Below, piece after piece: positions 1 through 532 of a stretch of DNA of 532 nucleotides. Position 1 is the stretch's first letter. Each line of letters starts with the position of its first letter. Location of the stretch: sequence record EF517005.1. One strand, written 5' to 3'. The notes under the pieces were generated by a model that was given only the letters and a program-made list of their open reading frames with translations, made no database searches and was not told where the DNA came from. The position numbers and the translations under genes are program-made. Origin of the DNA: a phage.

Positions 1-532
1 GCTTCGGTCGTATCCGTGACCTTGAAGCTAAGCACTTCAAGAAAAACGTTGAGGAACAACTCAACAAGCGCGTAGGGCACGTCTACAAGAAAACATTTAT
101 GCAAGTTGTCGAGGCTGACATGCTCTCTAAGGGTCTACTCGGTGGCGAGGCGTGGTCTTCGTGGCATAAGGAAGACTCTATTCATGTAGGAGTACGCTGC
201 ATCGAGATGCTCATTGAGTCAACCGGAATGATTAGCTTACACCGCCAAAATGCTGGCGTAGTAGATCAAGACTCTGAGACTATCGAACTCGCACCTGAAT
301 ACGCTGAGGCTATCGCAACCCGTGCAGGTGCGTTGGCTGGCATCTCTCCGATGTTCCAACCTTGCGTAGTTCCTCCTAAGCCGTGGACTGGCATTACTGG
401 TGGTGGCTATTGGGCTAACGGTCGTCGTCCTCTGGCGCTGGTGCGTACTCACAGTAAGAAAGCACTGATGCGCTACGAAAACATTTACATGCCTGAGGTG
501 TACAAAGCGATTAACATTGCGCAAAACACCGC
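1..532 (+). CDS. 1: Partial (internal) CDS of a T7-like phage single-subunit DNA-dependent RNA polymerase, covering approximately residues 150-327 of the T7 RNAP numbering; truncated at both window edges
   Basis: Frame 3 (codons at 3-5, 6-8, ...) is open over the whole window. The translation FGRIRDLEAKHFKKNVEEQLNKRVGHVYKK...GISPMFQPCVVPPKPWTGITGGGYWANGRRPLALVRTHSKKALMRY...PEVYKAINIAQNT matches the T7 RNA polymerase N-terminal domain as recalled from memory, with 5 of about 176 residues different. E222 (GAG, 216-218) and P266 (CCG, 348-350) are in their wild-type state. No start or stop codon in frame, so both gene ends lie outside the window. The symbol '1' is the T7 gene number, not a bacterial-style gene name. 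Confidence 0.95.
240..287 (+). other. Sub-region of the RNAP CDS encoding the promoter-intercalating beta-hairpin (approximately residues 230-245 in T7 numbering: HRQNAGVVDQDSETIE here)
   Basis: Positional mapping onto T7 RNAP numbering from the translated frame. The hairpin's function (duplex opening, Val237 stacking on the template) is established knowledge for T7 RNAP. The exact hairpin boundaries are approximate and given from memory. Confidence 0.6.

Follow-up and report, generated by a model that had tools for sequence, protein, structure and literature searches.

The window, i.e., the whole stretch of 532 nucleotides that was analysed, is an internal segment of gene 1 of bacteriophage T7, the structural gene for the phage RNA polymerase (RNAP). 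Read from base 3, the segment (positions 1..532, plus strand) encodes residues 151-326 in a frame that is open at both ends. It corresponds to nucleotides 449-980 (codons 150-326) of the gene and is colinear with positions 3619-4150 of NC_001604. Megablast and a base-by-base comparison give an identity to T7 of 98.9% over 532/532 bases, 526 of the 532 bases being the same, with zero indels, and megablast returns the same 98.9% for every wild-type T7 or DE3 record matched. Wild-type gene 1 (NC_001604 3171-5822), which is also carried by the DE3 prophage of BL21(DE3), has the same frame and is colinear with the window, whereas the window shows five amino acid replacements and one silent change. 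Comparison of the translated window with PDB chains of T7 RNAP matches residues 151-326 (E = 6e-115) and confirms the residue numbering, and the Pfam match of the product is RPOL_N. Near-identity, colinearity, and an intact frame place the window in gene 1 of T7 (species Teseptimavirus T7).

A megablast search of phages, plasmids, and E. coli genomes detects nothing closer to the window than wild-type T7. The next natural phages follow at 94.4% nucleotide identity or less, and no record falls between 98.9 and 94.4%. As the nearest records are all T7 itself and the next natural phages do not exceed 94.4%, the window is considered to be T7 plus six derived changes. K-mers spanning window positions 480/483, 231/265, 265, or 93 have zero exact matches in viral, genome, and metagenome contigs, and Rfam, promoter, and terminator scans of the window return nothing relevant. 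Two terminator-like hairpins with T-runs exist on the minus strand at window positions 47-66 and 461-474, with 0.3 being expected in shuffled sequences. These antisense hairpins lie inside the coding sequence, are also present in wild-type T7, and are probably chance matches. A search of a 5.8-billion-protein collection with window positions 3-532 yields only five short partial matches (51-76% identity), T7 RNAP itself being missing; because T7 RNAP and its close homologues are absent from the results, this search is uninformative for the T7 RNAP family.

When compared with NC_001604 3619-4150, the window has exactly six differences, five of them missense (G>A) and one silent (C>T), and no transversions. 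All six are G:C>A:T changes, which corresponds to a density of 1.13%. In the numbering of NC_001604 they are G3711A, G3849A, G3883A, C3951T, G4098A, and G4101A. The original prediction had listed these six sites with their coordinates, their codon positions, and the single silent C>T change, and had described the differences as transitions throughout, with five missense G>A changes and a ratio of non-synonymous to synonymous changes (N:S) of 5:1. Base-by-base comparison with NC_001604 bears out all of this, with six out of six changes being G:C>A:T.

In T7 RNAP, residues 151-190 constitute the H subdomain and residues 191-267 the promoter-binding domain (PMC11617373). The first change, A181T (GCA>ACA, window position 93, 5' neighbour A), resides in the H subdomain, and the next two, V227I (GTT>ATT, position 231) and G238D (GGT>GAT, position 265), each with a 5' G, reside in the promoter-binding domain. 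G238D adjoins Val237 of the intercalating β-hairpin, which comprises residues 230-245 and opens the promoter (PMC4176174). The silent change in codon L261 (CTG>TTG, position 333) is the sole change in the opposite direction, and the mutated G on the other strand has a 5' A. D310N (GAC>AAC, position 480, 5' neighbour A), which is also encountered in the laboratory isolates K and K115, and V311I (GTT>ATT, position 483, 5' neighbour C) form a pair of same-direction changes separated by 3 bp where the N-terminal domain (residues 1-312) ends. All six changes are given here as they read on the plus strand. The five replacements are conservative or surface-plausible and affect residues showing little or no variation in the relatives sampled, which would fit tolerated passengers. 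An obvious functional hypothesis exists for G238D alone, and a functional or selected role is conceivable for this change beside Val237 in the promoter-opening hairpin. No paper naming any of the five replacements in connection with T7 RNA polymerase was found in a literature search.

The same segment was aligned from 13 natural relatives ranging from 94% down to 74% identity, among them N30, Yanou, PSP2-22, Bas104, YpP-Y, IME390, 3A_8767, Vi06, Tarrare, and two T3-like phages, and from several laboratory T7 derivatives. At four of the five missense sites the T7 residue is kept in 13/13 relatives, and G238 is kept in all except Tarrare, which has Ala. None of the 13 natural relatives sampled carries any of the replacement residues of the window. 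Since the relatives keep the T7 residues and none has those of the window, the five missense changes are derived in the lineage of the window. The silent TTG codon at position 333 recurs naturally in Yersinia phage YpP-Y and is the sole recurrent change among the 13 relatives.

Natural differences in this segment run in mixed directions, include 15-30% transversions, and are almost purely synonymous. Natural T7 relatives at 4.5-12% nucleotide divergence show 0-7 amino acid changes in the segment, and N30, Yanou, and PSP2-22 show zero. For the eight closest species, N:S is 0:24, 0:25, 0:27, 2:32, 3:36, 3:40, 2:49, and 7:58, and the pooled natural ratio of 17:291 differs clearly from the 5:1 of the window (Fisher p = 6e-6). 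With a natural omega of about 0.018 in the segment, five non-synonymous changes out of six have a probability of about 3e-7. Six G:C>A:T changes out of six have a probability of about 0.001 if the natural spectrum of the window is assumed and of 0.64 with the spectrum of isolate K. The 176-residue translation of the window was also compared by tblastn with 50,697 phage records. Among the 1601 records that matched, no protein is closer to that of the window than wild-type T7 at 97.2%, a value at which several distinct natural species tie with wild-type T7. The window thus displays neither the mostly synonymous, mixed-direction differences nor the naturally seen residues of divergence within Teseptimavirus, and natural divergence is for practical purposes excluded as the origin of the changes. 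The original prediction had likewise held that this is not ordinary natural divergence, a view that agrees with the N:S contrast (17:291 vs. 5:1, p = 6e-6) and with the lack of the window's residues in all relatives. It had also named what would speak against it, i.e., a natural isolate with exactly these residues, and no such isolate exists among the 13 relatives, nor is anything closer present among the 1601 records matched by tblastn.

Laboratory-mutagenised T7 genomes offer a much better match. Whole records were compared for the wild type (AY264774) and for the isolates K (AY264775), K115 (AY264776), P (AY264777), and P82 (AY264778), all K and P substitutions being tabulated against their wild type AY264774. 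Isolate K has 419 substitutions in 39 kb (1.07%), 389 of which (93%) are G:C>A:T, and P has 243 substitutions in its first 30 kb (0.81%) with the same spectrum. We take the K and P isolates to have been produced with nitrosoguanidine. Inside the 532-bp segment K has five and P three G:C>A:T changes, and K115 has five differences from T7, all of them G>A or C>T and including the change at position 480; six or more G:C>A:T changes occur in 42% of K's 532-bp windows. The mutated G is preceded on its 5' side by a purine in 80% of cases in K, in 85% in P, and in 5/6 in the window, compared with 51% of all G's in the genome; for the window alone (n = 6, too few sites for a firm decision) this context reaches p = 0.12 and a likelihood ratio of about 4 over a context-free model. 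As expected for an alkylating type of mutagen, which gives almost only G:C>A:T changes and no indels, the window shows six out of six such changes and an ungapped alignment. K and P thus share with the window the T7 backbone, the gene, a density of about 1%, a nearly exclusive G:C>A:T spectrum, and a relaxed N:S, with a similar proportion of 5'-purine-G sites among the six, and the window looks like a random piece of a K/P-type genome in every measurable respect. The isolates AY264775-AY264778 and their wild-type parent AY264774 are assigned to Bull et al. (2003, J Mol Evol 57:241).

The window does not share the set of substitutions that is fixed in K or P in this segment. K has D310N (G4098A) in common with the window but lacks its other five sites, and P lacks all six; conversely, the window carries one of the five K sites and none of the three P sites in the segment and is devoid of the other K and P changes. 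Since five of its six sites are absent from K and all from P, the window represents a lineage or clone separate from the K and P records. Under a context-weighted model 0.28 sites would be expected to coincide with K, and the probability of a chance overlap at one site is about 0.25. This value is likely to be an underestimate, as 16 sites are common to K and P vs. 6.9 expected, and the shared D310N is compatible with chance or a mutational hotspot. Common ancestry with K by way of D310N was considered and rejected as unproven in view of these same figures. The 16 substitutions that K and P have in common genome-wide are identical, the expectation of about 6.9 applies after 5'-purine weighting, and gene 1 contains two of the 16, at positions 3285 and 5541 of AY264774. 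The excess of sharing between K and P points to mutagen hotspots or parallel selection.

The original prediction had called the changes strongly strand-biased, and this part does not hold up. Five G>A to one C>T is within noise and compatible with equal numbers (two-sided binomial p = 0.22), and a split as one-sided as this, or more so, is seen in 17-19% of the 532-bp windows of K and P that have 5-7 changes. Isolate K is balanced, with 196 G>A to 193 C>T genome-wide and 14:13 in gene 1, and gene 1 of P is skewed the opposite way, with 5 G>A to 13 C>T. A strand asymmetry linked to replication or transcription at gene 1 was therefore rejected, given the balance in K (14:13) and the reversal in P (5:13). 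A runs test reveals at most weak clustering of like changes (z = -1.6 for K and z = -0.9 for P). Among G:C>A:T pairs of K and P that are no more than 3 bp apart, 13 of 14 have the same direction, and the pair at window positions 480 and 483 fits this behaviour; such close pairs could be due to co-mutation on the same strand or to GG/CC context. The 5:1 preponderance of G>A is a sampling fluctuation, and no strand-specific process is required at this locus.

The excess of non-synonymous changes, which the original prediction had linked to a possible selected allele, proves equally unremarkable. Of all possible G>A changes in the window 78% alter the protein or create a stop codon, compared with 58% of C>T changes, and 77% are missense once stop-creating G>A changes are set aside. 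This high share of non-synonymous changes arises because G is enriched at codon positions 1 and 2. In the coding sequence of K, G>A changes comprise 119 non-synonymous and 52 synonymous ones and C>T changes 64 and 108, respectively, and the window follows this asymmetry. The neutral missense fraction expected for viable G:C>A:T changes in the window is 0.67, and the 5/6 observed does not exceed it significantly (p = 0.36), so there is no excess above neutrality for this spectrum that would indicate positive selection. The 5:1 ratio shows that purifying selection is absent, not that positive selection is present. Overall, the original prediction is partly supported: its attribution to mutagenesis was right in its main thrust, and its claims of strand bias and selection are unsupported.

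The window is likely to stem from a laboratory derivative of T7, or from a cloned gene 1, that underwent heavy G:C>A:T chemical mutagenesis, most probably by an O6-guanine alkylator of the N-methyl-N'-nitro-N-nitrosoguanidine (MNNG) type. Mutagenesis by an alkylating agent such as MNNG or ethyl methanesulfonate (EMS), which the original prediction had favoured, is also our best explanation, with K and P showing the same density and spectrum and, over the six sites, a similar 5'-purine context. The data show the spectrum, the density, the sequence context, a lack of purifying selection, and the agreement with mutated T7 genomes; the identity of the agent and the history of propagation are inferred. 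According to the mechanism proposed, guanine would be alkylated at O6 on either strand, preferentially at 5'-purine-G sites, and O6-alkylguanine would pair with T at replication, leading to G>A on the strand that bears the lesion. The resulting changes would be fixed under little purifying selection, either by bottlenecks or by hitch-hiking at a very high mutation rate. They would then build up at about 1% of sites, including residues that never varied in natural relatives, precisely because the hits are fixed with little purifying selection. Bull and co-workers, in their 2003 study, reportedly passaged T7 through bottlenecks with nitrosoguanidine. In PMC4811365 that study is cited as an example of random mutations being fixed by serial bottlenecks. 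When T7 is treated with nitrosoguanidine or hydroxylamine, G:C>A:T changes dominate, and nitrosoguanidine causes about four viable mutations per genome per infection (PMC6042481). The five replacements are best read as random, neutral-to-mildly-deleterious passengers and not as a set that was designed or selected.

Hydroxylamine, EMS, and heat deamination cause the same base change as an alkylator. A history of the same class with another agent, i.e., hydroxylamine acting on free phage or cloned DNA, EMS, or a heat- or bisulfite-type deamination of cytosine, each of which gives C>T on either strand, would account for all six changes being G:C>A:T and is unlikely. Hydroxylamine is documented to cause mainly G:C>A:T in T7, with as many as eight mutations in each genome per treatment (PMC6042481), and heat raises G:C>A:T in phage T4 (PMC8923235). 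Against these agents stands the context: a 5' purine precedes five of six mutated G's, a share similar to the 80-85% of K and P, with a likelihood ratio of only about 4 over a context-free process. A bisulfite treatment affecting one strand would, in addition, leave the single opposite-direction change unaccounted for. With respect to heat, the heat-adapted T7 lines (MZ375233-MZ375293; PMC8923235) are laboratory-evolved as well and bear Q184R and A188T in the H subdomain encoded by gene 1. Unlike the window, they have only one or two changes in the segment, which are parallel and selected and include A>G, and the heat-adaptation study reports no synonymous changes (PMC8923235). These lines exhibit a selection signature and not a mutagen load. 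In MZ375237 and MZ375279, for example, changes correspond to window positions 103 and 114; Q184R is an A>G change, and some clones also have A188T. The recurrence of Q184R and A188T across many heat-adapted clones suggests that they were selected. UV light was rejected as the agent, since only one of the six mutated C's has a 5' pyrimidine and the reported UV spectrum of T7 consists mainly of G:C>T:A.

Improbable, and more so than a different chemical agent, is an origin of the window as a selected T7 RNAP allele from directed or continuous evolution, by means of an in vivo mutator, a PACE-like system, or a deaminase-polymerase fusion, in which replacements would have been enriched. Five of the six changes do alter the protein, G238D is a neighbour of Val237 within the intercalating hairpin (residues 230-245), and D310N recurs in isolate K. 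However, N:S is no higher than neutral G:C>A:T mutagenesis predicts (0.67, p = 0.36), none of the five replacements is named together with T7 RNA polymerase in the literature searched, and the recurrence of D310N is unsurprising by chance (about 0.25 in the context-weighted model and probably higher). Broad-spectrum mutators are not expected to produce six G:C>A:T changes out of six. Evolution based on a deaminase fits the motifs poorly, with TC at one of six sites. Moreover, as transcription-coupled deamination hits mainly the non-template strand, the coding strand would be expected to show C>T where G>A is seen.

A sequencing or template-damage artefact, with cytosine deamination in the DNA, in a clone, or in a read of the wild-type gene from T7 or BL21(DE3), is very improbable. 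C>T and G>A are indeed the very changes that deamination damage yields, contamination with the T7 RNAP gene, which 28 E. coli genomes carry, is common in laboratories, and the window is short. Nevertheless, a density of 1.1% in a consensus is far above the damage rates that survive assembly, the window has zero indels or other errors, and the 5' purine at five of its six mutated G's is in line with genuinely mutagenised genomes.

Still more remote is an unsampled close natural relative of T7 bearing these residues. Phage diversity is undersampled, and the silent TTG codon at position 333 is indeed present in Yersinia phage YpP-Y. The interval between T7 at 98.9% and the next phages at 94.4% is empty, though, none of 13 relatives carries the window's residues (four of the five positions being invariant and G238 differing only in Tarrare, with Ala), no protein among the 1601 records matched by tblastn is closer than wild-type T7, and an omega of about 0.018 makes five non-synonymous changes out of six improbable (3e-7).

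Scarcely credible, to the same degree, is a strand-asymmetric DNA deaminase, be it a bacterial anti-phage or toxin enzyme or an engineered one, that would have acted on T7 replicating in a cell, with a preference for the template strand of gene 1 and with D310N as a hotspot. The 5' neighbours of the C's that would have been deaminated are G, A, A, G, T, and A, so that TC occurs at one and WRC at two of the six sites, and no enrichment of an APOBEC (5'-TC) or AID (WRC) signature is found in this small sample of six. Deamination at Dcm sites (CCWGG) was rejected as well, as none of the six sites fits the motif.

As a presumably MNNG-mutagenised T7 sequence, the window is a laboratory object of an already known kind, whole mutagenised T7 genomes having been publicly available since 2003. 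Its biological significance is slight, as it is a further example of a chemically mutagenised allele of T7 polymerase. It is more useful for calibration: a strand bias over six events and a high N:S require no process that is strand-specific or selective, given that most G>A changes on a coding strand are non-synonymous by nature. T7 RNAP would tolerate changes at residues that do not, or hardly, vary among natural relatives, including G238D by Val237, provided that the source was a viable phage or clone. Sequences mutagenised in the laboratory should be recognised in scans before biology is inferred from them.

Two other sequences that match T7 gene 1 deviate from the wild type. E. coli BL21-AI (NZ_CP047231.1 74320-74851) shows three differences from T7, at positions equivalent to 45, 79, and 289 of the window; all are missense and of mixed type, i.e., A>T (N165Y), A>G (H176R), and T>C (L246P), and the other 27 DE3-type E. 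coli genomes are wild-type in the 532-bp segment. The Acinetobacter phage YC#06 (Vieuvirus; ON391949.1 47302-47784) has an unannotated fragment at the end of its record that is about 95% identical to T7 gene 1. This fragment has 12 differences, 10 of which are transversions and 10 non-synonymous, together with length differences, and looks like contamination or a low-quality assembly end and not like a real gene.
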